64,000 nt of DNA, from the IMG/VR virus record IMGVR_UViG_3300044832_000053, positions 14,926 through 78,925 of that record, one strand, 5' to 3'. This DNA comes from a virus. Below are positions 20,936 through 34,960 of this stretch, piece after piece. The stretch's first letter is position 1. Each line of letters opens with the position of its first letter. The notes beneath the pieces were generated by a model. The model was not told where the DNA came from. It saw only the letters and a program-made list of their open reading frames with translations, and made no database searches. A program made the translations under genes and the position numbers.

Positions 20936-22153
20936 TCAGACGCCCGTCTGCTGGCGGTAGCGGGCCACCAGGGAGGCCCGGCCCTGGTGGGCGGCGGCGG
21001 CGTCCTCGCCAGGCTCGGCCCCGAGGGCGGACCCCAGCTCGTTGCCGAGGTCCAGCATCTTGGCCATCTTCCCGAACTCGGAGAAGATCTGGCGGACGAT
21101 CGCGCCCGCGTCCACCTCGGTGCCGTTGGACAGCTCCACGGTGCGCCCGGTGCCCTCCAGCAGCGGCCGGGCCAGGTCGCAGATGTAGGGCGCGATGCCG
21201 TAGGTGGCCATGAACCCGTGGCGCTCGGTCTCGTACCGCTGGGCGTCGAGCTGGTCGGTGACCGCACGGAGCTGGCGCTCGTTCTCCTCGCTCCGGGCGT
21301 TGGCCAGCTCGATGGCGAGCTGGGCGGACCCCGAGAGCTGGGCCCCGGCCCCGGCCTCCTGACCGGCGAGCAGCTCCGCGAGCTGCTCGTCAGACAGGGG
21401 ACCGCTGTCGGCCGGGCCGTCGAGGGCCTCGGCTGCGGCGATCAGCTCGGCCAGCTCCTCGTCGGTCAGCTCGGCGTCCGCCGCCGGGCCAGCCGTGGGA
21501 CCGGCCGGTGGCGTGGTGTCGAGGCTGGCGATGAGCTTATCCATCTTGTCGTCGGGAACGTCCAGGAGCCTGGCCAGCCGGGCCTGCTGCTCCGCGTTCA
21601 GCTCGGGCATCATGTCTCCTTCTGAATCGGGAGCGTCAAACGTGGCGTCGGAAAGGTCGATGACCGGGAGGTCATCGTTGGCAAGGTCCACCTGCTGCCA
21701 CGGCCCGAGGCCAGGCAGGCGGGGGTCGAGGGTGCCGAGGACGTGCTGGATGGCGGCCGGGAAGAACTGGCCGTCGGCGCGCTGGTAGTCCTCCACGATC
21801 CGGGCACTCACGCCCAGCCGTGGGTTGTCCTTGAGGATCTTGGAGCCCTCGTCCGTGGTGGACAGGGTGAGCCAGAGCCCGTCGGGCTCGGCGGTCATGG
21901 CGGCTACTTCCCCGCCGAAATTGCGGACATCGTTATTGTGCTTGTTGTCCGCCGACGCGAGCTGGAAGGGCACCTGGCCATAGGCCCGCTGGTGGAATGT
22001 CTCAGCCAGCCCGGCCAGGTAGTCCGCCGTGAAGTCGATCTTGCGGCCCTTGTAGTCGATGGAGCCCACCGGCAGCACCCGCTTGCGCCAGAAGCGCGGC
22101 CCGGCGACCCTGGCCGGGGAGCGGGTGTACGGCGTGAGGACGGCGGCTGTCAC
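20936..22153 (-). CDS. Prohead protease/scaffold (Mu gpI-like)
   Basis: N-terminal protease-like domain (H in NKHN, GVSA, HVLGTLDPRLPGL) plus acidic helical scaffold C-terminus. Confidence 0.8.
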   Translation of the reverse strand: MTAAVLTPYTRSPARVAGPRFWRKRVLPVGSIDYKGRKIDFTADYLAGLAETFHQRAYGQVPFQLASADNKHNNDVRNFGGEVAAMTAEPDGLWLTLSTTDEGSKILKDNPRLGVSARIVEDYQRADGQFFPAAIQHVLGTLDPRLPGLGPWQQVDLANDDLPVIDLSDATFDAPDSEGDMMPELNAEQQARLARLLDVPDDKMDKLIASLDTTPPAGPTAGPAADAELTDEELAELIAAAEALDGPADSGPLSDEQLAELLAGQEAGAGAQLSGSAQLAIELANARSEENERQLRAVTDQLDAQRYETERHGFMATYGIAPYICDLARPLLEGTGRTVELSNGTEVDAGAIVRQIFSEFGKMAKMLDLGNELGSALGAEPGEDAAAAHQGRASLVARYRQQTGV

Positions 22154-22785: not shown

Positions 22786-22943
22786 TCGCCCTCCCCGGCC
22801 ACGGCCCGCCTGACCAGGTCATCGGCCATCTTGGCGGCCAGGTCAGTGGCCATTCCCTTGCTGATGAGCAGTTTCCCCAGGATCTCGGTCGCCCTGGCCT
22901 GCTGGTCGTCCGTGGCGTCTGCGGCCCGGGGCAGGGGAGCCAT
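22782..22943 (-). CDS. Small helical protein (53 aa, not in track)
   Basis: MAPLPRAADATDDQQARATEILGKLLISKGM...; overlaps both neighbours. Confidence 0.55.
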   Translation of the reverse strand: MAPLPRAADATDDQQARATEILGKLLISKGMATDLAAKMADDLVRRAVAGEGE

Positions 22944-23500
22944 CACAGCTTCTTCGCGGCGTCGGTGAGTTCCATGATCACTAGCGGGCCGAACGAGGCA
23001 CCCAGGCCCAGCAGGAGCGGAGCGCCGAACGTGGTGGCCAGGGCAACCAGGATCGCGGCGGCCACGATGGTCCCGATGTGGACAGCGAGCTTGATCCGGG
23101 CCTTCCTGGCTTCCTTCTCGGCAGCCAGCCTCTCCAGCTTCTGCTTGTCCATCTCGATCGCAGCGAGCTTTTTCGCCACGTCTGAGGCATGTGCCTCGCG
23201 GGCGGCTTCCTCGGCCCTGACTTCCTTGAGGACGGGGGCCTGCATGGCCGTGATGGCTATCAGGGACTGGAGCTGTGCCGCTCCCTGGGCCCTGGCAGCC
23301 TGGCTGGCCATGGCAGCGCGCGGGGTTGAGCCGCCCTTGATCCAGCGGCCGTGTGAATCCCGCAGCTCCAGTTCCATCTGGGCCAGCTCAATGGCTTCCC
23401 GCTCTGTCTCAAGAACGTCAACAGCCATGAGAAACGGGAGGCCAGCGGCGGTGAGGGTGCGGAAATCACGGAGCTGTCGCTGCGTGATCTGCGTGGGCAT
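22943..23500 (-). CDS. Head-module protein with IELA / RDSHGRW motif, coiled coil and C-terminal hydrophobic hairpin
   Basis: Translation shows AIELAQMELELRDSHGRW, then coiled coil and two hydrophobic segments. Confidence 0.65.
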   Translation of the reverse strand: MPTQITQRQLRDFRTLTAAGLPFLMAVDVLETEREAIELAQMELELRDSHGRWIKGGSTPRAAMASQAARAQGAAQLQSLIAITAMQAPVLKEVRAEEAAREAHASDVAKKLAAIEMDKQKLERLAAEKEARKARIKLAVHIGTIVAAAILVALATTFGAPLLLGLGASFGPLVIMELTDAAKKL

Positions 23501-23539
23501 CAGTGGTGACCCTCTCACTTGATCACTGATGCTACGCGC

Positions 23540-23812
23540 CTAGCCTGCTGTATGCATGCCCACAGAAGCGGCAGTAGCCAGGACACGGTACTGATCTGCC
23601 GTGATCCGGCCCGCGTTGAATGCCAGCTCGACCTCGTACCATGATCCTTCACCGGGCCACGGGCGTCCAGTCAGATCGCTGGCAATTGTCTCGTGATACC
23701 CGGCCGCCGGGGTGGTCTTTTCCCAGCTCAGGTGCGCGAATTTCACCGCTGCCTCAGCCAGGTCCATGTTCCCCGAGGTCAGGGCATCAAGGATGTCCCT
23801 CACATTGCCCAT
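23540..23812 (-). CDS. Small protein overlapping the end of the polyprotein gene (candidate zeta-toxin immunity)
   Basis: 90 aa, starts within last codons of the 1751-aa ORF; function inferred from position only. Confidence 0.5.
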   Translation of the reverse strand: MGNVRDILDALTSGNMDLAEAAVKFAHLSWEKTTPAAGYHETIASDLTGRPWPGEGSWYEVELAFNAGRITADQYRVLATAASVGMHTAG

Positions 23813-26800
23813 GAGAACTCCAGGCCCTGGCCGGAGCTGGACACGAGCTGCGGCTCGCGGCCGGTCACGGAGTTGTCGAACTTGTCCCAGGAGTCGAACA
23901 ATGGCAGGGCCATGGCGAATGTCATCTCGTTCACCGAGATCTCCGGGTCTGAGGTTCCCCAGATCTTCACGATGTCCGCCGGGGGGACATGCCGCCCGCC
24001 GAGCCCCTTGCCCGCCAGCCAGCTCTCCAGCCCCGCGCGGTAGCGGGCCAGCGCCCGGTCGATCGAGACCTGGAGCGGGACGTCAACATAGACGCCGTGC
24101 ACATGCCCGTAGCCAGCCGACCGCAGCCGGGCGATGTGCCCGGCCATGTCATCGGCCGGGAGCATGGTCAGGTCCACGATGATGTTCTTGCGCATCGCCA
24201 TCGAGCGGTCCAGCGCCATCTGGGCCAGGTGATGTGCCTCGTCGCTCACCAGCGGGCTGGCTTCCATGGGTGACAGGTTCCCGACGTGGGGCACCAGCCC
24301 GCGCTTGGCCAGCTCGGCCTTGAAATCATCCGGGGCGATGGGCAGGTAGTCGTCCATGTTCATGCCGGGCAGCTTGCCCAGTGCGGTGGTCTTGCCCGCG
24401 CCTGGCAGGCCGCCGCCGAAGATCGCCCGGCCCCCGTTGGGCACTGCGGCCGAGCGCGCCATGACCGCGTCGATGATCTCCTTGTGGATCGCGGCGCGCT
24501 CGGGGGTGTAGATCTGCCCGTCCCCGCTCACGGACTGGGTAACCGCCGTGTTCTGCCCGGCCGCGAAGGCGTCAGTCAGGGTCTGCTCCACTACGTGCTG
24601 CCGTCCCGTGAACTCGGCGTCCGTCAGCGGCCGGGCTGCCTGGCCGCTGATCCCGTGCGCGACCGTGGGTGATTCCTCGTAGTCGAGGTTGTCGTCTTCC
24701 TCGTCCCAGCGGTGGGTGTAGGCGGACGGCGTGATGTACGGGCCAGCGGAGATCAGGCCCTTGTCCCCGGCCGGGGGCGGCCCGGCCTTGACCGGCTTCC
24801 AGCCGTGCGTGTAGACGAAGGGCGTGCCCGGGATGTGACGGCCATGGCCGTCGCCGGTCAGGTCTAGCTGGGCGCTGACCGTGGCAGTGCCGCGACCGAG
24901 TCCGCCAGGGCCCGTGCGATCTCCAGCCGCCTGGCCTCCGGCAGCTCGCGATAGCTGGACGGGACCGGCCCCGCCACCACCTTGGGCGTGGGCTCCGCTG
25001 GCTGCTCCACCGCTACCTCCTGCCTGGATCTCCCGGCCGCCGGTCACGTCCCAGATAGCCGCCTGGCCGCGCTTCCTGCCCTCCGCGAGCGCCTGCTCCC
25101 GGCTGGCAATGTTGTCGCTCGGCTCCAGCCAGAGCTTACCGTCGTGCACCCATCCGCCCAGGTAGGTGTCTTTCCCGGCGAACGCCTGGTGCTCGCTCAT
25201 GATCATGCCGTCAATGGCACGGGCCAGCTTCTCCCGGTCATCGAGGATCTCAGCCGGGAAGGTGTGCGTGTGCCCGGCCTGGGCAACCATGAACCCGCTG
25301 GCTGGCTTGCCGCCGGTCCGCATGCTGACCGAGAATCCTCCCCGGTTCTGCGCGGCCGAGGCTGCCTTGCTGCGGATGGTGAACGGGCCGGGCCGGGGCG
25401 GCCCGGGTGAGGGGCGGAACATGCCCGCGATGGCCTGCTGCATCCGGGGGGGTTCCCCGCTGGGCAGGTTCACCCAGCGGCCCCGGAAGTCACGGGGCTC
25501 GTGAGCACTGAACGCCAGGTCGATGCCCGCTGCCTGGCCGCTCAGTGTGGTAGTCCCCGGGACCACCGGAACGTGATGGGCAGCGGCGAACTTCTTCCAG
25601 ATCCCCCAGTCCCGGGCGGTGTTGGCGGTGCGCCCGCGCTCCCGGGCCGTGACCGCTGCCGCGTCGGCCGCCTGGTTGGCGGCCTGCTGGTGCAGCCAGG
25701 TGATCGCCTGGAGCTGGGATGGGGTGACCAGGTGACCCTGCCGGGACAGCTCCGCAGCCGCCAGCCGGTAGGTGTCCGCGACGTGCTCGTAGTAGCGCTT
25801 GTCCCCGATGGGCGAGGCGTCGATCTCCTCCGTGGTCACCCGGTGCCCGGCCGCGACGGACAGGGCGTGCCGGTCAATGACCACCTGGCCGAGCCGGTCG
25901 GAGGATGCGTCCCCGCCGTGAGCGATCAGCTTCGCGAACGCCCGGGTCTTGGGGGACTTGAGGGCGTCGATACTGCCGGTGTCCATGGCCCGCTGCGCGG
26001 CCCGCTGCTCGGGGCGGCTGATGAAGCCCTCACCGGGGCCCAGGGCGCGGCCCAGCTCCAGCGAGCGGGCCGCGTTGAACAGGTTCTCCGGCCAGTTCAC
26101 CTGCGGGGAGAACGCGGCCAGCACCGCCGCGCCCTTCTCCGCATCCCCGCCCGCGATGGACCGGGCCACCATCTGTGCGTCGGCGTACCAGCGCATCCCC
26201 TGGGCCTTCTCAGCCGGGGCAGCCGCGCTGTAGGCGGCAACGATGTTCGCCGGGCTGACCGGCACCGACTTGAAGAACGGGTGATCCGCCGGGCTCACGA
26301 TGGAGCTGCGCGGGTTGGCCAGCCGGGAGGGGTCCGGGGCCGCGTACTCATGGCCGCTCACGCTCCACCGGCCATGAGGGTCCCGCAGCTCGGCGGGGTT
26401 GTAGTGCCAGCCGCCCGCCAGGTCAACGCTGAACTCCCGGAACTGGCCCAGCGCCACCCGGTCCGCGTGCGTGTATCCCTTCACCGGCTTGTAGGAGTGG
26501 ATGAACTCCGGGGGCAGCGGCTTGCGGATCGCCCGGTATCCCATGTGGCTGGTGCTGGGATACAGGAACTCAGCTTCCCTGGCCTTGGGCACCCGGATGT
26601 CGATCAGCATGCCCGGCTTAGACGGCCATTCAAGATCATCGTGCCGCTCGTACGCGACGATCTGCGACTCGTTGCTGTCTGGGGACAGCACTGGGTCGTA
26701 CCCGTCATACCCGGCTGCGTGCAGGCCCTGGTCCCGGATCGACCGGGCGGCCTCCGGCGTGGTGCCGTGGAAGAACTGGGTGTAGCTGGACGGGTCAGCC

Positions 26801-29055
26801 TCCGGCCCGCCCCGGGTCCACTCGCCATGCTCGTTGCGCAGCTCGTGCACCCAGTTGCCTGCGCTGGGCCTGGGGCTGGGGCTGCCGGAATCCTTCTTAT
26901 TCCACCAGCTCAGCTCAACACTGAACTCCCCGCCGCCGGGTCCCAGCTCACCGGCCCGCTCCATCATGTCCGAGTACCACATCTGGTGACCCAGCCGCTC
27001 GAACTGGGGCTCCAGCTTGGCCAGCTCCGCCCGGATCTTGTTGGCGTAGTCCTGCGGGATGTTCGAGGGCTCCTCATTCCAGAACGTGGTAGAAGCCGCG
27101 CCATCTCCGGCATATATGAAGCCCGAGCTGTTGTCGATGGCCACCGGGCTGCCGGACGGGGTGACCATCCAGTTATTGGAGTGGCGGTCCGGGTTCTGGA
27201 TCAGGAAGTCCAGCAGCCCGATCTTCTGGCCGTCCTCTGACTGGGTCAACTCGCTCTGGGCTCCGTAAGGTGCATCAGCCAGGTACCGCGAGGCGGTCGT
27301 GCCCGGGACAAAGCCCATGACCTCCTCAGCAGGATCACCCCCGCTGACGCGGGCGATGGGCGGTGAGGGTGCCCCGATGGCCTGGGCGACGTAGTAGGCC
27401 AGCTCGTCGGTGTCCGCCATCTCCTCATAACCGGAGTGGTAGATCTTGTGCACCACCTTCTCGCCATTGGGCAGGGTCACGATGTCCACATTGCCCTGGA
27501 CCCCCTGCTGAGGGTGCATGGACTCGCCCTCTGCGAGCTGATCCGGGGTAGCGATCTGCTCCAGGTGCTGTACGGCCGGGCTGGACGGTCCCAGCCCTCC
27601 CGGCTGCGGCATGCCCGGCAGCAGGTATTGCTTGACGCCCGTCGTGACCATCACCCCGGGGGCGGTCTGCCGGGGAGGCTCAGGCAGTCCCGCCAGGATC
27701 TTGGACGCCGGGACCGGGGTGCCCAGCAGGCCGTTGACCCGCCTGACCAGTTCAGGTCCGGCCTGGTACTCCCCGCCCGCGACAAACTGCCGGGCAAGCT
27801 GCTGGGCCCGGCCCTCGTTGATCGCCTGGTGCCGCTCCGCTCCTGCGGCGCGGGCGGATACCCGGTGCTCCATGACCGCAGCCCAGGTCTGCCCCTGGAT
27901 ACTGGGCGGGATCTGGGATAGCTGCTGGGCCTGGAGGACGTTACCCCCGTTCCGCCAGTCCACCAGGTAGCGGTTCCCGTCATCGGATTCGACCACCACG
28001 TTGCTGCTGGTCATGGCGGTGACCCGGCCTACCCCGCCATGGCCGTCGCGGGCCATGTCCCCGAGCTTCGGCTCCCGGTTGCCGGGCAGGAAGGCGGCCC
28101 CGGCCCCGCTGCCGTGCGGGCCGATGAATTCCCACTGCTTCCCGCCCGGGGATGGGCTGGGCGTCTCCGCCTGCGGGTTGAATGCGGGCCGGGGCGTGCC
28201 CATCTTCATCCCGCCCAGTCGCGGGCCAGCCTGGCTGAGCGGGACGGTGTGCACGGGGGCACCACCGTTGCGCCAGTCCACCAGGTGACGCTTCTGGTCG
28301 TTGGCGTCGATCACCGCATGGCCGCCGCCTTTGTTGACGACCCTCCCCCAAACGCCCTGGCTGTTGCGTGCCTGGTCATTGACCTGCGGCTCCGCCACTA
28401 CCTGGGAGCCACCCCGGATGAACTGCCAGCGGCCGAGGATCGCGGGCCCGGCGACCTCATCCGCCAGCAGCGCCCGGTGCAGCCTGGATTCCTGGTTCAG
28501 GGCACTTACCTGGGCAGCGGTGCCTGAAACCTGCCGGAAATCAGCACCGTGCACGGGCTGGAGCTGGGCCGCGACCGAGTCCGGTGCCTGGCCGTGTATT
28601 CCCGGGTGTGCGCCCCGGATGATCTGGCCCTGCTCATCCACTGTCCAGGTGTCGAGATTCTCCCGGCGGTTGTTGTGCTGGACCCGCCGCAGTCTCTGGG
28701 CGTTGACCAGCCGGTCCTCGCCTATCTGATCCCGGATCGACTCCGGCCCCATCCCACGGGCCCGCAGGACCCGGGCCCGGTTAATCTCCGCCCCGTCGCG
28801 GAGGCCCTTGGGGGTCGGGGCCTGCTTCATCCGGTCTGCCCGCTCCTGGGCCGCCGCCGCGTCATGCTTGGCCTGCCACATGATCCCGTTGATGGCGGTC
28901 GGGCCGTAACCCCGTGCCGCGAGTGCAACGCGCTTGCGCTGGTCCTCCAGGGCCGTGGCGGAGAATCCGGGCCTCTTCGCCCAGCGCCCGTGGGTGTCAC
29001 GGAGCTGATTGGGCTGGAAGTGCCAGGCCAGGTCCACCTGCTCGCTGATGCTCAC
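23800..29055 (-). CDS. Multi-effector (polyvalent) protein: SH3-like repeats, HipA/PI3-4-kinase-like, ADP-ribosyltransferase-like, HhH-glycosylase-like, SAM-lyase-like(?), zeta-toxin P-loop kinase
   Basis: Motifs LLDFLIQNPDRHSNN/VAIDN; FFHGTT..AARSI..QGL..PLPPEFI; GMRWY..SPQVNW..KTRAF..VVIDRHA..LQAITW; YLGGW..GRKRGQAAIWD; GGLPGAGKTT..IAPDDFK..GGRHVP. Confidence 0.85.
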   Translation of the reverse strand: MSISEQVDLAWHFQPNQLRDTHGRWAKRPGFSATALEDQRKRVALAARGYGPTAINGIMWQAKHDAAAAQERADRMKQAPTPKGLRDGAEINRARVLRARGMGPESIRDQIGEDRLVNAQRLRRVQHNNRRENLDTWTVDEQGQIIRGAHPGIHGQAPDSVAAQLQPVHGADFRQVSGTAAQVSALNQESRLHRALLADEVAGPAILGRWQFIRGGSQVVAEPQVNDQARNSQGVWGRVVNKGGGHAVIDANDQKRHLVDWRNGGAPVHTVPLSQAGPRLGGMKMGTPRPAFNPQAETPSPSPGGKQWEFIGPHGSGAGAAFLPGNREPKLGDMARDGHGGVGRVTAMTSSNVVVESDDGNRYLVDWRNGGNVLQAQQLSQIPPSIQGQTWAAVMEHRVSARAAGAERHQAINEGRAQQLARQFVAGGEYQAGPELVRRVNGLLGTPVPASKILAGLPEPPRQTAPGVMVTTGVKQYLLPGMPQPGGLGPSSPAVQHLEQIATPDQLAEGESMHPQQGVQGNVDIVTLPNGEKVVHKIYHSGYEEMADTDELAYYVAQAIGAPSPPIARVSGGDPAEEVMGFVPGTTASRYLADAPYGAQSELTQSEDGQKIGLLDFLIQNPDRHSNNWMVTPSGSPVAIDNSSGFIYAGDGAASTTFWNEEPSNIPQDYANKIRAELAKLEPQFERLGHQMWYSDMMERAGELGPGGGEFSVELSWWNKKDSGSPSPRPSAGNWVHELRNEHGEWTRGGPEADPSSYTQFFHGTTPEAARSIRDQGLHAAGYDGYDPVLSPDSNESQIVAYERHDDLEWPSKPGMLIDIRVPKAREAEFLYPSTSHMGYRAIRKPLPPEFIHSYKPVKGYTHADRVALGQFREFSVDLAGGWHYNPAELRDPHGRWSVSGHEYAAPDPSRLANPRSSIVSPADHPFFKSVPVSPANIVAAYSAAAPAEKAQGMRWYADAQMVARSIAGGDAEKGAAVLAAFSPQVNWPENLFNAARSLELGRALGPGEGFISRPEQRAAQRAMDTGSIDALKSPKTRAFAKLIAHGGDASSDRLGQVVIDRHALSVAAGHRVTTEEIDASPIGDKRYYEHVADTYRLAAAELSRQGHLVTPSQLQAITWLHQQAANQAADAAAVTARERGRTANTARDWGIWKKFAAAHHVPVVPGTTTLSGQAAGIDLAFSAHEPRDFRGRWVNLPSGEPPRMQQAIAGMFRPSPGPPRPGPFTIRSKAASAAQNRGGFSVSMRTGGKPASGFMVAQAGHTHTFPAEILDDREKLARAIDGMIMSEHQAFAGKDTYLGGWVHDGKLWLEPSDNIASREQALAEGRKRGQAAIWDVTGGREIQAGGSGGAASGAHAQGGGGAGPVQLSRAAGGQAAGDRTGPGGLGRGTATVSAQLDLTGDGHGRHIPGTPFVYTHGWKPVKAGPPPAGDKGLISAGPYITPSAYTHRWDEEDDNLDYEESPTVAHGISGQAARPLTDAEFTGRQHVVEQTLTDAFAAGQNTAVTQSVSGDGQIYTPERAAIHKEIIDAVMARSAAVPNGGRAIFGGGLPGAGKTTALGKLPGMNMDDYLPIAPDDFKAELAKRGLVPHVGNLSPMEASPLVSDEAHHLAQMALDRSMAMRKNIIVDLTMLPADDMAGHIARLRSAGYGHVHGVYVDVPLQVSIDRALARYRAGLESWLAGKGLGGRHVPPADIVKIWGTSDPEISVNEMTFAMALPLFDSWDKFDNSVTGREPQLVSSSGQGLEFSWAM

Positions 29056-29273
29056 GGGTGCACCCAGACGTACCCGTTGCTCCAGCCGTCCAGGGACTCG
29101 AACGCGATCTCCGCATCACCGCCAGCCCGGCGCAGCGCTGAGTCCGCGATGGCCTGGCTGGACTCGCTGCTGCCGGTCAGGCGGTCCGTGTCCAGCCTGA
29201 TGGTGCCGAGCTGGCCCTGCTCATCGAAGACCCCCAGCGTCAGCGGCTCACCGGCCTGGCTGGAGATGCTCAC
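29052..29273 (-). CDS. Small acidic protein (ends WSNGYVWVHP)
   Basis: Overlaps both neighbours by 4 nt. Confidence 0.6.
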   Translation of the reverse strand: MSISSQAGEPLTLGVFDEQGQLGTIRLDTDRLTGSSESSQAIADSALRRAGGDAEIAFESLDGWSNGYVWVHP

Positions 29274-30958
29274 AGCTTGCTGGCCGCGAAAGTGAGCTGG
29301 GCGGCCTGGGTACGGAGCTGGGAGATCTGCTTGCGGACCGCCAGGATACGGCTGGTCAGGTTAGCCGTGGCACTGGCCTTCGTGGTCTTGGACGCGGCCC
29401 TGGTCACGGCCTTCTTCGCGCTCGCGGCCGTGGTCTTCTTCGAGGTGGCAGCCTTCCTCGCCGCTGCCGCCGTGGTCTTCTTCGACCCGGTGGTGTGCTG
29501 CTTGGTGTGCGCCGCGTGCTGGGCCCTGAGCTGTGCTTCCAGCCCCTTGAGAACGATGGACAGTGCGTTGGCCTTCTGCCGGTCCGCCTTGGCCCGGGAT
29601 AGCAGCTTGCGCTTCTTCACCTGCTTCGAGCCCCCGGCCGGGGCCGCGCCACCCGCGCCCCAGGTCCCGCCAGCGGTCCGGGGCTCAGCCGGGTTGAATC
29701 CGGCCAGCTCGACGGACTCATACCACTCATTGGAATGGCTGGAATCCTGGGCATGAGCCCGTGCGGACATCGAGGCCAGCCCGGCCAGGGCCTTCACCGC
29801 AGCCGCCCTGACCTCGGGGTGCACGCTGCCGCCTCCGGCCGCCCACTTGCGGATCGAGCCCCAGGTGATCGCCGTGGCCGACCCCTCGCTGTGCCCGGCC
29901 CGGATCAGTGCGTTGCGGACGTTCTGGAAGTAGGGCGGGAACTCCATGCCCTTGACGTGGTAGGCCCCCGGCCCGCCTGGCTTCCCGATCGGGGCGGGCG
30001 TGACCGCCAGCCGGGCGGTGTCGGCGGACATCTCCAGGGCCTGGGAACTGATGGTTGAGTACCCCTGCGGAGGGGGTGCCTGGGTGTGGGCAGCCATGGA
30101 GTACGGGGCGGTCATCCCCGGCCCGGTGACCCGGTAGTCATGAGTTATCGCGCCCACCCCGGCGGGCACGCCTGCCAGGCTGGCGCGGACCGCCCGGACA
30201 TCCTGGACCGCCAGCGGGCTGGTGTGCCGGGCGGCCCACTCGGCCGAGTCCAGCGCCTTGCGTGCGTGCCCCATCTTGCGCATCGCGGTGAACCGGGCGG
30301 CGGCGCGCATCGAGGTGCGCAGCATCTCAGCCGCCGGTCCGGGACTTGCGTTGTTGCGCAGCTCGCCCTGGGGCTGGTACTTGTCACCGACGCCCTCGAT
30401 GGCCCGGATATGCGAGAACCCGCCGGGTGCACCGGAGTAGCTGAATGAGCTGTGCCCGCCCGGCCCGAGGACCCACCGCCCGTCCGGGCCCCGGAGCTGG
30501 TCAGGGTGGAAGGCCAGCTCGATGCTGTAGTCCTGCTGGCCGGTGCCGGTTCCGTTCAGGTTCGCGATGTCAAAACCCCCGGGCTGGTCCCCGGCCGCCC
30601 CGGGCCGTATCCCGCTGCCTTTCACGTCGGCCCTGGCCGCCGCCTGCTGGTCGCGGTACGCCTGGTTGGATGCCTCAGCGTCCTCGATGTCCTTGATCAG
30701 CAGGCAGTGCCGGTTGATCATGTCCATGTGCCGCTTGGCGTGGGCGTGCCCGTCATCGTCGGTGATGCCGTGCCGGTACAGCGACAGCGGGGCCAGGGTG
30801 TGCATCGCGGCGGCCAGGTGCCTCCCGGCCGACTCGGTCTTGCCCCGGTGCATCGAGTTCGCCGCGTCCCGCAGGTGATCCCCGACGCCCAGCTCGGGCA
30901 GCACCTGGTCGGTGCGATGGGCCACGCCCCGGATGGATGTGGCCACGGCCTGCTTCAT
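29270..30958 (-). CDS. Modular head-associated protein with Lys/Ala-rich C-terminus
   Basis: Likely start MKQAVAT (30958) just after MuF stop; contains IELAFHPDQLRGPDGRW, ISSQALEMS, VELAGFNPAEPRTAGGTW. Confidence 0.7.
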   Translation of the reverse strand: MKQAVATSIRGVAHRTDQVLPELGVGDHLRDAANSMHRGKTESAGRHLAAAMHTLAPLSLYRHGITDDDGHAHAKRHMDMINRHCLLIKDIEDAEASNQAYRDQQAAARADVKGSGIRPGAAGDQPGGFDIANLNGTGTGQQDYSIELAFHPDQLRGPDGRWVLGPGGHSSFSYSGAPGGFSHIRAIEGVGDKYQPQGELRNNASPGPAAEMLRTSMRAAARFTAMRKMGHARKALDSAEWAARHTSPLAVQDVRAVRASLAGVPAGVGAITHDYRVTGPGMTAPYSMAAHTQAPPPQGYSTISSQALEMSADTARLAVTPAPIGKPGGPGAYHVKGMEFPPYFQNVRNALIRAGHSEGSATAITWGSIRKWAAGGGSVHPEVRAAAVKALAGLASMSARAHAQDSSHSNEWYESVELAGFNPAEPRTAGGTWGAGGAAPAGGSKQVKKRKLLSRAKADRQKANALSIVLKGLEAQLRAQHAAHTKQHTTGSKKTTAAAARKAATSKKTTAASAKKAVTRAASKTTKASATANLTSRILAVRKQISQLRTQAAQLTFAASKL

Positions 30959-30984
30959 GCCGCCGGTCGCGATCAGCCTGCTGC

Positions 30985-31608
30985 CTACGCGGCCAGGCGC
31001 ACCAGGGTTGGCAGGAGCGGCGCTCCCCTGAACGGGGCCACCGGGTGGCACCGGCAGTGCGGGTGCACCGTTCCCGGGTACCCGATTGCCGGGGGGATTG
31101 CGGCCAGGAAGTTGCGGCCGTCCGCTGCCTTGCACTCGGGCGACGTCCGGGCGTCGTGTACTGACTGCCATCCGAGAACCTTTCCCCATCTGTAAGCCGC
31201 GCCGTCGATGGCCGACCCGGCCATGATGCGCCCCTGGTTGGCCTCGAAGTGCTGGCCGAAGTAGCGGGATTCGGTCTCGGCCAGCCGGTCAAGCGCCTCG
31301 GCACGTGGCTCGCCCCGGCTGGCGGCCCCGGCCAGGCCGTCCTGGATGCGGTGGGCGGCGGCCACGAAGAACGCTGAGCGCCGGGCGATGTTGGCGTGCG
31401 CAGCCCATCGGGTGGCCGGGCCGACGCCCTCGATCCGGTCAGGCGGGTAGCGGGTCTCGATGGCGATCACCGCGCGCAGCGCCGGGCCGCTGATGCCCGC
31501 GCCATGGAACGTCCCGGCGATCTGCGTGAAGATGCCAGCCGCCGACGGGTAGGCCGCGAACGCCCGCGCTGCGGTAAGCGCGAGCATGGCATCGCTGCGG
31601 GCGCTCAT
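30985..31608 (-). CDS. MuF-like minor head protein
   Basis: WQSVHDARTSPEC..DGR..PGTVHPHCRC; ATG at 31608 in ATGA overlap; follows portal. Confidence 0.85.
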   Translation of the reverse strand: MSARSDAMLALTAARAFAAYPSAAGIFTQIAGTFHGAGISGPALRAVIAIETRYPPDRIEGVGPATRWAAHANIARRSAFFVAAAHRIQDGLAGAASRGEPRAEALDRLAETESRYFGQHFEANQGRIMAGSAIDGAAYRWGKVLGWQSVHDARTSPECKAADGRNFLAAIPPAIGYPGTVHPHCRCHPVAPFRGAPLLPTLVRLAA

Positions 31609-31802
31609 ACCGGGTGGACCGTCCCGTCCCGGGCGAAGTGCTCGTCCACGGTGTGCCCGTACTCCATCGCGTGCATCGCGGCGTCGTTGAGCACCCCGGG
31701 GATGGTCATGGGGTAGCTGGTGGTGCTGGCGGTCTCGGTGAAATCGCCGTCCTGGCAGGTCACGGTCATGGTCTCGGTTGAGTCGATCCTGATGGGGGTC
31801 AT
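31605..31802 (-). CDS. Small hypothetical protein (65 aa, MTPIRID...)
   Basis: ATGA overlaps with portal and MuF. Confidence 0.55.
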   Translation of the reverse strand: MTPIRIDSTETMTVTCQDGDFTETASTTSYPMTIPGVLNDAAMHAMEYGHTVDEHFARDGTVHPV

Positions 31803-33370
31803 GCCATCTTCCCGGGTGGCGGCACCATGGGCGGCTTGCCCGGCGGCCGTGGCGGCCCGGCAGCACTCTGGCGCGGTGGCATCTGCCCGGGGGCGGGGAC
31901 CTGGCCACCCGTGGCCTGGTGGGCGATGCCCAGCGCGGTGCTGGCCATGCCGTTGAGCGCGCCCACCCCGGCCAGGGCCGAGGGGGGCATGCCGGGAGGG
32001 GCCCCGGCGGCCCCGGCGAGCTGGGCGGCCCGCTGGGACGCTGAGTTGACCAGCGCGGTGTGCACCTGGTCGATGTCGAGCTGGAGGACCGAGGCCATCC
32101 GCTCGGCCAGCAGGTCCACGAACTCGATGGGGATGTGCAGCGCGGGGGCGGCGACGATCTGCCCGAACAGGGTCAGCAGCGCCTGGATCTGCTCGTCCTG
32201 GAGCGGCCCGAACTTGAACTTGGGGAAGGCGGCGTCGGGCCCGAAGTTCAGGATGATCATGGGAGCGATGACGTCGTGGCTGATCCACCCGGCCATCTCC
32301 TTGGCCACAGCCTGCCGGGACTTGAGGTAGAAGCTGGACTGGTCCTGGGACAGCGCGTAGCTTCCCTTGCCGCCCGTGGATGCCCCGGTCAGGCCCATGA
32401 ACCCGGCCAGTACCGAGCCGATCTGCCACTGCTCCAGGAAGCCCAGGGCCTCCTTGAAGATCGCGCCGCCCTCGCCAGCCGCCGGGATGGTCTCGAACGA
32501 CTTCTGGCCCGCCTCGGGATGGACCAGGCCCACCACGCCGGAGGACCGCAGCGAGGCAATGTCATCCGCGCGGGTGTTGGCCTCGGGCTGGTCATTGCCG
32601 TAGACGATCGTGCGCGGCAGGGCCAGGTTTTCGAGGTAGTTGTACCAGAGGAACAGCAGCTTCATCTTGGTCTGGTAGCACCAGTAGGCGATCTCCATCT
32701 CGCTGACCCCGACCAGGGGCTCGCGGTGGGTGCCGTGGGTGTAGATGGCGCTGCGGATCTTGGGGATGTCCACGTACCCGGGGACCTTGGACTTGGCCTG
32801 GAGGGTGTTGGCCTGGCCGAACATCCACACGAGCTGGCGGAACCCGTTCGGGTTCCCGCTCCGCTCGTTGAACGCGCTCTGGCAGGTGGACGGCGGCCGG
32901 TAAGCGAGCTTGTCAAGCACCACCCGCTCGTCGCTGGCCCGGATCTTCCAGACCTTCTCGAAGAACGCCTTCTTGTAGATCTGCCCGGACGTGACCTGGC
33001 CGATGAACTGCTCGATGGGCGTCTGCATGCCGCCCTCGGTGTCCGGGGTCATCAGCACCGAGTTGGCCAGGTCGGCCTCGCCCTTGTCGCCCTTGGCGGG
33101 CTCGATGGACTGGTCAGCCTCGCGGACGGGCAGGGTCAGCACCATCTCGATGGCCGAGCACTGGCCATCGCGGCGGAACATGGTTTTCATGTCCCGCGCG
33201 CCCCACTCGCCATAGTCGAAGACGTCGCCGGAGCCGAAGTAGGCGAACAGCTTCTGGCCGTAGTCGAACGCGGTCCCGATCTCCGGGCCCATCAGGTCCC
33301 GGCGGTCACCGGGCTTGAGGTCGGGGAACTTGAGGATGCGGGCGGTGGACGGGTCGCGGGCTGCCATCAC
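31799..33370 (-). CDS. Portal protein (Mu gp29/DUF935-like)
   Basis: FFEKVW, KGSYALSQDQSSFY, LNFGPDAAFPKFKF; follows terminase. Confidence 0.9.
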   Translation of the reverse strand: MMAARDPSTARILKFPDLKPGDRRDLMGPEIGTAFDYGQKLFAYFGSGDVFDYGEWGARDMKTMFRRDGQCSAIEMVLTLPVREADQSIEPAKGDKGEADLANSVLMTPDTEGGMQTPIEQFIGQVTSGQIYKKAFFEKVWKIRASDERVVLDKLAYRPPSTCQSAFNERSGNPNGFRQLVWMFGQANTLQAKSKVPGYVDIPKIRSAIYTHGTHREPLVGVSEMEIAYWCYQTKMKLLFLWYNYLENLALPRTIVYGNDQPEANTRADDIASLRSSGVVGLVHPEAGQKSFETIPAAGEGGAIFKEALGFLEQWQIGSVLAGFMGLTGASTGGKGSYALSQDQSSFYLKSRQAVAKEMAGWISHDVIAPMIILNFGPDAAFPKFKFGPLQDEQIQALLTLFGQIVAAPALHIPIEFVDLLAERMASVLQLDIDQVHTALVNSASQRAAQLAGAAGAPPGMPPSALAGVGALNGMASTALGIAHQATGGQVPAPGQMPPRQSAAGPPRPPGKPPMVPPPGKMA

Positions 33371-34960
33371 TCACCGCCAGGAGCGGACGTTCGGCCGTTC
33401 GGGACGATCTTGATCATCCCCCTCACCGTCTTTGGGCGCGAAGGATTCGAGATCCCAGCGCTGGTCCTGATCGTAGGCCCCTCCGTGCGCGTAGGCGAGC
33501 CGCCGGGACGGTAGCTGCCCAAGCGGCTTGCTGAATTCCTCCAGATCCTGGCTCGCTGCCCACCGCCGCACGGACGCCGGGACCCCCCGGGTGTCGAAGC
33601 TGCTCTTGAGAAACGGGTGCACTGCCCAGCACAGCGAATCGAGCCGGTCAGGGCTGCGCTCGTTGGCCGCCCCGGTGAAGGAGCACATCTGGTCCTCCAG
33701 CTCCACGAACGGCCCGTAAGCGTGCCGGACCAGGCCCCGCTCGTACAGCGCGGCGGCGGGCTCGGCCCGGGTCCGCTTGCCGAGGCTGGCGTGCACGGTC
33801 TTCACGTGCGGGACATGGTCCGCCAGCCGCCCGGCCTTGGTCAGCTTCTTCTTGACCTGGGAGAACACCTCGGCCAGCCAGGCCCCGCCGTGGTTCTTCT
33901 CCACCACCAGGCTGGCTCTCCACTCGTGGGCCGCCAGCAGGGCCTTCTCCGCGAACTGGGCCGGGCCGATCCGGCCGCCCCAGCTATCAAGGATGTAAAC
34001 AAATCCGTCGTTGCCCATCCCGGCCACCGTGTACGCCTGCTCATCGGAGTCCTCGGTGCCGTCCGAGGGGTCAACACCGACGTAGATAGTGAGCATGGAG
34101 ACCGGGCGGCCGTCGTCCAGCATGGGCTTGCCTACCTGGATGGACTCCAGCAGGTCCCGGGTCCACAGCGCATTCTCGACGTCATCGAGCAGCTCGCCTT
34201 CCAGCTCCTGGCGTTCCAGCCGGGTGCCCTTGGCCAGCGCGATGACGCCCTGGAAGAACGCCTCGGACAGGTTGGCGATGTTGTCGATGGTCCGCAGGCG
34301 GCGGATGACCATGCCGGGCTCGTCGCCCCGCAGGAACCGGCGGATCAGCGCGGCGGCGGGCCGGGAAACCTTGGGTGTCCCGGTGGTGATGATCTTGGAC
34401 GCGCCGAGCCGGACCGCGAACTTGATTGACTCGTCCCAGGCGATGGCCCACTTCTGCCAAAGCCCGATCTCATCCCCCCACAGGCCCTTGAGGTTCTTGC
34501 CCTGGACCCGCAGCGCACCGTCGTCGGCGGAGTCCACGAAGATGATGTGACCGTTGCGGAGCCCGATCTCGCCGTAGCTGCGGTGTGCATAGGCAACCTG
34601 CTTGGAGCTGTGGTCCTTGACCTCCCCGGCCGAGGTTCCCAGTGCGGCCAGAATGCCAGCCCGGCCCTCCACGCAGACGGTCCAGGCGTCCCGGTAGGTG
34701 GGCGCGACGATGCCCCACTCCCCATCGGCCTCGCCGTCGTCCAGGATGAGCTGAGCGAGGCCCTGAGCCCCCGCACGGGTCTTCCCGCTGCCACGGCCGC
34801 CCTGGTAGTACACCTTGGACCATGGCTCCTCAGGGAGCCGCTGGGACGGCCGGGCGGTGTCCAGCCAGGCCATCCGGGGATCGACGGCAACCGAGTCGAG
34901 CGCGTCCGCGACCGCGCTGAGCAGATCCTGGTCAGCCGGTGGGACGTAGATGGCGGACAA
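33371..34960 (-). CDS. terL: Terminase large subunit
   Basis: GGRGSGKTRAG Walker A, LWGDE Walker B, TGTP, VGVDP and SPDRLDS nuclease motifs. Confidence 0.95.
   Translation of the reverse strand: MSAIYVPPADQDLLSAVADALDSVAVDPRMAWLDTARPSQRLPEEPWSKVYYQGGRGSGKTRAGAQGLAQLILDDGEADGEWGIVAPTYRDAWTVCVEGRAGILAALGTSAGEVKDHSSKQVAYAHRSYGEIGLRNGHIIFVDSADDGALRVQGKNLKGLWGDEIGLWQKWAIAWDESIKFAVRLGASKIITTGTPKVSRPAAALIRRFLRGDEPGMVIRRLRTIDNIANLSEAFFQGVIALAKGTRLERQELEGELLDDVENALWTRDLLESIQVGKPMLDDGRPVSMLTIYVGVDPSDGTEDSDEQAYTVAGMGNDGFVYILDSWGGRIGPAQFAEKALLAAHEWRASLVVEKNHGGAWLAEVFSQVKKKLTKAGRLADHVPHVKTVHASLGKRTRAEPAAALYERGLVRHAYGPFVELEDQMCSFTGAANERSPDRLDSLCWAVHPFLKSSFDTRGVPASVRRWAASQDLEEFSKPLGQLPSRRLAYAHGGAYDQDQRWDLESFAPKDGEGDDQDRPERPNVRSWR

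Follow-up and report, generated by a model that had tools for sequence, protein, structure and literature searches.

A window of 64 kb (64,000 nucleotides) from the viral record IMGVR_UViG_3300044832_000053, a single contig of 78.9 kb with a GC content of 69%, was analysed for a short peptide that recurs in three proteins of the head module. The peptide was found to be the local form of a header, or tag, of about 20 residues with the consensus [FY]-[DNS]-P-x-[QE]-[PL]-R-D-x-x-G-R-W-[TS], followed by a Gly-rich linker. Each junction at which it occurs is a composite of a lineage-specific site, the universal header and a flexible linker, and stands at the start of a portable payload. Head-packaged polyvalent effectors processed by a head protease are a known kind of system; the header itself appears to be undescribed and is very common.

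An earlier note on this DNA had described seven R-x3-G-x-W peptides, each shortly after a [VI][DE]L[AS] site, as a portable packaging or ejection tag. All seven peptides were confirmed, in the coding frame of minus-strand genes and in three neighbouring genes of the head module. They lie at amino acids (aa) 19, 740, 891 and 1188 of a 1751-aa protein (23800..29055), at aa 233 and 504 of a 639-aa protein (29270..31189) and at aa 53 of a 191-aa protein (22943..23518). The sites were also as described: exactly seven [VI][DE]L[AS] sequences are present in the three proteins, each 10 to 27 residues ahead of the Arg of a tag, and the tags lie 3 to 20 residues downstream of the putative cut site. When the residues of the three proteins were shuffled 20,000 times, the expectation was 0.007 tags and 0.35 sites, and the number of site-plus-tag pairs was zero. 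A tag profile, whose 115 training rows include the seven window tags, was run on the six frames of the whole 78.9-kb genome and scored only these seven (26–33 bits), the next best match reaching 7 bits. Since synonymous codons differ between the copies, about as codon usage predicts, the tag is conserved as a peptide, and a DNA-level repeat or recent duplication was rejected.

Four of the seven junctions are in the 1751-aa protein. In junction 1 (28981..29037, on the minus strand like all the others) a leader of eight residues comes first, with VDLA at aa 7–10 and the tag FQPNQLRDTHGRW at aa 13–25 (30.0 bits). Junction 2 (26818..26919) joins VELS (aa 713–716) to the short-form tag WVHELRNEHGEW (aa 735–746, 26.4 bits) and heads an ART-like module, labelled by eye and with no family match. 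WVHELRNEHGEW represents a recurrent short subtype, W-x-HELR-x3-GEW, which was found in the same form at the orthologous junctions of two relatives (L087, L002). Junction 3 (26365..26427; VDLA at aa 877–880, YNPAELRDPHGRW at aa 885–897, 30.2 bits) heads a DUF7178 module and junction 4 (25474..25524; IDLA at aa 1178–1181, FSAHEPRDFRGRW at aa 1182–1194, 28.1 bits) a module matching phrog_17808. The 639-aa protein has a first junction at 30473..30523 (IELA at aa 223–226, FHPDQLRGPDGRW at aa 227–239, 32.7 bits) and a second at 29660..29713 (VELA at aa 493–496, FNPAEPRTAGGTW at aa 498–510, 29.6 bits), the latter heading a very basic tail. The junction of the 191-aa protein (23342..23392; IELA at aa 43–46, MELELRDSHGRW at aa 48–59, 29.9 bits) heads a helical segment with a hydrophobic C-terminal stretch. 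An eighth, degenerate junction, beyond the seven of the earlier note and not scored by the tag profile, is junction 5 of the 1751-aa protein (24799..24867), where LDLT (aa 1397–1400) and then GDGHGRH...THGW (to aa 1419) precede a zeta-toxin kinase module. The residues E-F-S were observed ahead of two of the junction sites (EFSVELS, 26919–26940; EFSVDLA, 26427–26448). The C-terminus of the 1751-aa protein, ...GLEFSWAM (23800–23823), looks like half a junction and, by its sequence, may be left from the loss or gain of a module there.

The distribution of the header was assessed by scanning IMG/VR with a degenerate DNA pattern for P-x-[QE]-[PL]-R-D-x-x-G-R-W, which gave at least 119 loci. Nearly all matches fell within long open reading frames (ORFs), on contigs of 36–75% GC, and several loci contained two or three copies. 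Positions left free in the pattern were conserved among 108 distinct viral instances: F or Y at −2 in 100 (93%), D, N or S at −1 in 99 (92%), and T or S after the Trp in 81 (75%), followed by a glycine run. The profile built on 115 instances recovered 4,079 representative proteins at E≤1e-3 among 1.84 billion, 590 of them at 1e-10 or better, with up to nine copies of the header in a single protein. Comparison of tag peptides by tblastn with 50,697 phage records gave 16 and 2 weak matches, useful only for cluster-H mycobacteriophages and Nocardia phage P3.1. Pfam, PHROG and NCBIfam have no model for the header. It is not described in Iyer 2017 (PMC5512222), Jamet 2017 (PMC5576092), Zhang 2012 (PMC3482391), PMC9503650 or PMC13483052, and text searches for spellings of the motif were also blank.

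Co-occurrence with MuF and portal loci, which the earlier note had proposed to examine with a hidden Markov model, was found on viral contigs. Among 94 tag-bearing ORFs, portal domains are present in 14 and MuF domains in 11, and an S78 protease and a scaffold domain are each found in one. The other domains in this set are ARTs, DUF7178, Acb1, zeta toxin, ParB, pesticin-type lysozyme, pyrophosphatase, topoisomerase IB and nuclease toxins. In the cases with known coordinates the order was portal, tag, payload, for portals of the Mu, lambda, HK97-type and portal_3 families, and the order MuF, tag, ART was also seen. The neighbouring ORFs at 26 loci encode portals, capsid proteins of four families, terminases, MuF and head proteases (S78, Mu-like_Pro). 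A regular expression for the HPxCRC motif of MuF was too crude to score co-occurrence locus by locus. In the 25 best multi-tag proteins, MuF was present in seven and a portal in one, along with GNATs, ARTs, DUF7178, Acb1, 2H phosphoesterases and a zeta toxin. No conjugation markers were found in these 25, and the idea that the tag is common to conjugative polyvalent proteins was set aside for this reason.

The portability claimed for the peptide also held, as it moves with its module. Module 3 of the 1751-aa protein begins at residue 24, 181, 227, 464 or 489 in relatives, module 4 also exists as a stand-alone tagged gene, and every orthologous junction in relatives retains the tag in its long or short form. 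Some proteins start directly with it (MAFNP..., MFNP..., MSFNP...). One of them is gp10 of Mycobacterium phage Damien (L120:5995-6768, NC_024371), a very basic, tag-headed protein starting MSFNPRQPRDRFGRW. It is recorded as a head maturation protease, an annotation that is possibly wrong because the very basic, tag-headed sequence has no visible protease features. Small basic tag-headed proteins like Damien gp10 were observed at two other loci (L036, L049). Tagged non-enzymatic proteins of the kind expected inside heads are exemplified by Damien gp10, by the 191-aa protein and by the basic tail that ends the 639-aa protein.

A candidate for the enzyme acting at the sites is encoded in the same module. 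The 405-aa protein (20936..22153, minus strand) has more than 750 homologues, unnamed and on uncultured contigs of up to about 84 kb, and gave no match in Pfam, PHROGs, NCBIfam or PDB sequence searches. H72, S116 and H137 are invariant across 51 homologues, as is the pair D166-L167. In its AlphaFold2 (AF2) model (mean predicted local distance difference test score, pLDDT, 77.6; N-domain mostly above 90) the best fold match of the N-domain is T4 gp21 (5JBL; probability 1.00, TM 0.55 on target), followed by herpesvirus proteases. With this modelled fold and the conserved catalytic His and Ser, the protein is a gp21/assemblin-type head protease fused to a scaffold-like part. A disordered linker (aa 147–181) holds the sites VDLA155 and IDLS165, and the helical C-terminal half downstream has two more conserved sites, IELA281 and VELS339. 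No header accompanies any of the four, so a site can exist without a tag. This type of site is located where such proteases are usually self-processed, and the protease probably cuts its own scaffold half. Enzymes of the gp21 type cut after an acidic residue. We infer from the sequences that the 405-aa protease may also cleave at the [VI][DE]L[AS] sites of the cargo proteins. Since the tag lies just downstream of a type of site that is also conserved in the linker of the gp21-like protease, the header would remain on the released fragment.

The residues preceding the tag vary with lineage and protease type, and the tag is constant. At seven fetched loci with a 405-type protease, 10 of 12 distinct tags follow a hydrophobic-[DE]-[LMF] sequence, compared with 15 of 145 elsewhere. 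Lys or Arg is present at −3 or −4 in 85 of these 145 tags.

The header was also found outside phages. A scan of bacterial genomes gave about 53 true tags among 122 matches, mostly in Alphaproteobacteria. In the tagged bacterial proteins (L158:135-1097, L123-L237; P0271-P0308) the tag connects a conserved N-domain of some 125 residues to a variable toxin domain (EC869-like, Tox-REase-5, Ntox44, PBECR3 or NlpC/P60). Nitrospirillum and Azospirillum have several paralogues per genome, whose N-domains are 80–96% identical and whose C-termini differ in length and in the names given by the source; one metagenome-assembled genome holds six tagged paralogues. An arrangement of constant N-part, motif and variable toxin in several paralogues, as at pre-toxin demarcation motifs, was thus found in this family and not in the window, and the family looks from its sequences like an undescribed polymorphic-toxin family. 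In the AF2 model of one such protein the N-domain folds confidently and the tag lies outside it as a small hairpin (pLDDT 65–71), followed by a disordered linker. The N-domain has no clear match among solved folds (Foldseek E>1; best VIA Z 3.5). On 11 viral contigs from IMG/VR (L241-L255) the same family adjoins phage, RcGTA-like or phiJL001-like structural genes, namely DUF2460, BR0599, Phage-tail_3, GTA_TIM, S78 and head-tail connectors. It is therefore not wholly detached from phage particles, and this neighbourhood raises the question whether such toxins ride on particles of phages or of gene transfer agents (GTAs). Two members (L251:5338-7023, L255:5854-7227) were observed with a different junction peptide, ...TQPRIPAG-x5-PGTWT, which suggests, as far as the sequences go, a wider set of related headers sharing Pro-Arg ... 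Gly-x-Trp-Thr.

Our tentative preference is for a header that is kept on cargo modules freed by a gp21-like protease and that serves as a docking or hand-over peptide for their retention and exit. Three proteins encoded between MuF and the protease carry about ten modules in series, each with a [VI]-[DE]-L-[AS] site and then the header within a few residues. The long proteins would enter the procapsid, inside which the gp21-like protease would cut at the acidic sites, and each freed module would keep the header at its new N-terminus. The header, in the form of a small Arg/Trp hairpin on a flexible Gly-rich tether, would then dock or hand over the module, keeping it with the cargo in the head and/or presenting it for exit with the DNA. 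Cleavage, packaging and retention, as well as any binding partner of the header, are what we infer from these arrangements. The header is probably not the cut signal itself. Docking is favoured over a role in cutting because sites without tags are present in the protease-scaffold protein, tags are found at extreme N-termini and the tag is constant across proteases. A bolder version makes the header an address label for delivery by particles that is universal and can be transferred: any protein bearing it behind a site matched to the phage's own head protease would stay in the head and be passed to the recipient cell, and chromosomal toxin families would use it as well. This version is considered rather unlikely. 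If it were true, one could predict from sequence what uncultured phages carry as cargo and load virions with proteins of choice.

Several points weigh against the docking or hand-over reading. Modules fused to a portal or to MuF are already anchored and should need no loading signal, yet they are tagged; for loading, a polyprotein could do with a single tag, but each of its modules is tagged. The closest studied case is T4, where the capsid-targeting signal lies before the cut and is discarded, which by analogy would speak against targeting by a peptide that stays. The portal, capsid and protease families differ widely among the tagged phages, so that no conserved partner of the header is evident. 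The association between protease type and upstream residues rests on seven loci that are relatives and not phylogenetically independent, and its Fisher p-value of 1e-7 therefore overstates the evidence. The tag also heads chromosomal toxin domains, at 29 loci with housekeeping neighbours and a single terminase and a single tail match; because of these alphaproteobacterial toxins the function of the header may not be specific to capsids. Of four tagged alphaproteobacterial genomes checked, three are without MuF and two without the GTA-type gene DUF2460, two of the four being without both. MuF, named in the earlier note among the possible partners, was rejected as a universal one, since tags occur in genomes that do not have it, and the idea that the tagged proteins are in-trans cargo from a resident GTA or prophage was rejected as a general rule, as two of the four genomes are without MuF and DUF2460.

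The idea of a capsid-targeting signal on the cargo thus stands in part: the peptide is portable, tied to head modules in viral contigs and placed downstream of sites, but there is no sign of capsid targeting as such and the peptide is also found on modules fused to portal or MuF. A distribution unrelated to head modules, which the earlier note would have taken as evidence against its proposal, was not found in phages and was found in part in bacteria.

The header might act later, as a generic payload header or pre-toxin element that works at or after delivery, starting translocation or refolding or engaging a conserved factor of the recipient cell, and common to phage cargo and chromosomal toxins. 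Such a role would account for the tags on modules anchored to portal or MuF, and it fits the alphaproteobacterial proteins, in which the same tag divides a conserved N-domain from variable toxins, in up to six paralogues, with mostly housekeeping neighbours and where MuF and DUF2460 can be missing. It agrees less well with the 25 best multi-tag proteins, all of which are phage-type and free of conjugative polyvalent markers, although conjugative polyvalent proteins also reach recipient cells. Some tagged proteins are not toxins but basic or membrane-like, and the alphaproteobacterial family stands beside phage or GTA-like structural genes on the 11 viral contigs. On balance such a role at or after delivery, the main rival, is doubtful. 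A determinant of processing, that is a P'-side docking site needed by an assemblin-fold head protease or another release protease to cut the adjacent junction, is a weaker candidate and appears improbable. In this phage the tag always adjoins a putative cut site, and it is present at every junction, including those between portal and payload and between MuF and payload, where release is needed but loading is not. The head proteases near tags (S78, Mu-like_Pro and the 405-aa type) are moreover related by fold, S78 and Mu gpI among them. None of this explains the four conserved sites in the protease-scaffold protein, which do without a tag, the several proteins that start with the tag and have nothing upstream to remove, or the occurrence of tags in bacterial genomes where no neighbouring gene encodes a head protease.

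The tags stand where one module meets the next, and relatives have the modules in shuffled combinations, as would be expected of a passive joint, a domain-insulating linker with short homology that eases module exchange and has no binding function. In polymorphic toxins, conserved demarcation motifs such as VENN probably ease the exchange of cassettes. A spacer, however, has no need of near-invariant Pro, Arg, Asp, Gly, Arg and Trp, the peptide is kept from 36% to 75% GC while its codons vary freely, and some 30 bases at about 60–70% identity are a poor substrate for recombination, which makes a passive joint most improbable. The Asp, Asn or Ser before the first Pro in 92% of the viral instances would allow for autoproteolysis, in which for example a labile Asp-Pro or Asn-Pro bond breaks and sets the payload free. 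The dipeptide is absent from three of the seven window copies, and two others have Gln-Pro or His-Pro in its place, Arg, Gly and Trp being retained; tags at extreme N-termini would release nothing. Asp-Pro self-cleavage was set aside because the dipeptide is not retained in the window copies, and an autoproteolytic site of any kind is hardly credible. A possible N-degron at the new Leu or Phe N-terminus was considered as well and set aside.

Earlier work has described phage-type polyvalent proteins, as well as effectors that are fused to MuF, a portal or a head protease, and predicted that they are packaged and injected (PMC5512222; PMC3482391; PMC5576092; PMC9503650). Release by built-in metallopeptidases was proposed in the main texts of these four papers, in which no conserved header at module boundaries and no head-protease sites there were found to be mentioned. 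The 1751-aa protein is a phage-type polyvalent protein in the sense of Iyer et al. (PMC5512222), because it matches a kinase-like segment, DUF7178, phrog_17808 and a zeta-toxin kinase. Pfam matches were PI3_PI4_kinase-like at aa 611–646, DUF7178 at aa 936–1121 and Zeta_toxin at aa 1544–1695, with phrog_17808 at aa 1261–1338. At least two unrelated effector domains are thus combined in one polypeptide, the cargo genes sit among late virion genes near MuF, portal and terminase, and the repertoire (ART, zeta toxin, kinase-like) agrees with that of the described proteins. The difference is that the 1751-aa protein has the header and putative head-protease sites, and no metallopeptidase match.

The resemblance to the capsid-targeting sequences of T4 (IPI-III and Alt, processed by gp21) is partial. 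The gene for a protease of the gp21 fold lies beside those of the cargo, each putative cut comes after an acidic residue preceded by a hydrophobic one, and short N-terminal leaders, of eight residues in the 1751-aa and 44 in the 191-aa protein, precede the first cut. The header here lies after the putative cut and would be kept, so that, compared by position and not by sequence, it is not the N-terminal and removed element of T4; it also repeats inside polyproteins and is common to phages with unrelated portals and capsids. The analogy drawn in the earlier note is therefore apt for the protease encoded with the cargo and fails for the tag, the targeting role in T4 belonging to the discarded leader. 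Demarcation motifs of polymorphic toxins (VENN of CdiA, DPxGL of Rhs; PT domains, PMC3482391) are similar in that a short motif stands between a constant carrier and a variable C-terminal toxin, which is clearest in Nitrospirillum and Azospirillum. The header differs from them in sequence, repeats many times per protein, is mostly linked to phage heads and has no release peptidase domain attached. Encapsulin cargo-loading peptides are short peptides on a flexible linker that bind one cognate HK97-fold shell protein. Like them, the header is a short peptide with a flexible linker on unrelated cargo, whose destination inside an HK97-fold shell is putative here; the sequences are unrelated and the header spans phages with at least four capsid families. 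As regards the MuF polymorphic toxins (Jamet et al. 2017, PMC5576092), the MuF ORF of the window is in a frame separate from the cargo, and MuF-tag-payload fusions were found elsewhere, in the 11 ORFs mentioned above.

The known head-packaged effectors leave the question of how single modules are marked, separated and handed over. A single short peptide marks the payload modules of thousands of phage proteins irrespective of the families of portal, capsid and protease, which would allow injected anti-defence and toxin cargo to be listed from sequence alone and links phage cargo to a bacterial polymorphic-toxin family. It is also an easy entry point for experiment. Even if the header were only a joint or an aid to processing, it would still be useful in annotation as a marker of module boundaries.

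The head module is on the minus strand, in the order TerL, portal, MuF ORF, 639-aa, 1751-aa and 191-aa proteins, protease-scaffold, scaffold and major capsid protein. Megablast of the region against cultured phages gave no match, and tblastn with the 1751-aa protein found only relatives sharing single modules. The large terminase (33371-34960) is followed by a Mu-type portal protein (31799..33370; PF06074, E 2.9e-30) and an ORF (30985..31908) with a MuF-like domain at aa 224–288, which scores 26.4 bits, below the cut-off of Pfam, and contains the motif HPHCRC. The 5' end of the gene for the 639-aa protein overlaps this ORF by about 205 nt (30985–31189) in a different frame. A 73-aa ORF lies between the 639-aa and 1751-aa genes and a 90-aa ORF between the 1751-aa and 191-aa genes. 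A 211-aa protein is encoded after the 191-aa gene and before that of the 405-aa protein, beyond which follow the scaffold (phrog_673) and then the major capsid protein (phrog_1650).

The five modules of the 1751-aa protein are PI3/PI4-kinase-like, ART-like, DUF7178, the phrog_17808 domain and the zeta-toxin kinase. In module 1, upstream of the kinase-like part (about 27900–28400, about aa 220–385), two copies of a repeat of about 100 residues (...GRV...D...R.LVDWRNGG...) were observed, with no family match. The 639-aa protein has three segments and no family match. Its final tagged segment (29270–29659, aa 511–639) is rich in Ala, Lys and Thr, with 28 K+R versus 2 D+E in 123 aa; this resembles a histone-H1-like DNA-binding tail and makes the segment a candidate internal DNA-associated protein. 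Downstream of its tag, the 191-aa protein (22943–23341) has a long helical stretch rich in charged residues and then a membrane-like, hydrophobic C-terminal segment of about 40 residues, a sequence that resembles the build of a membrane-inserting ejection protein.

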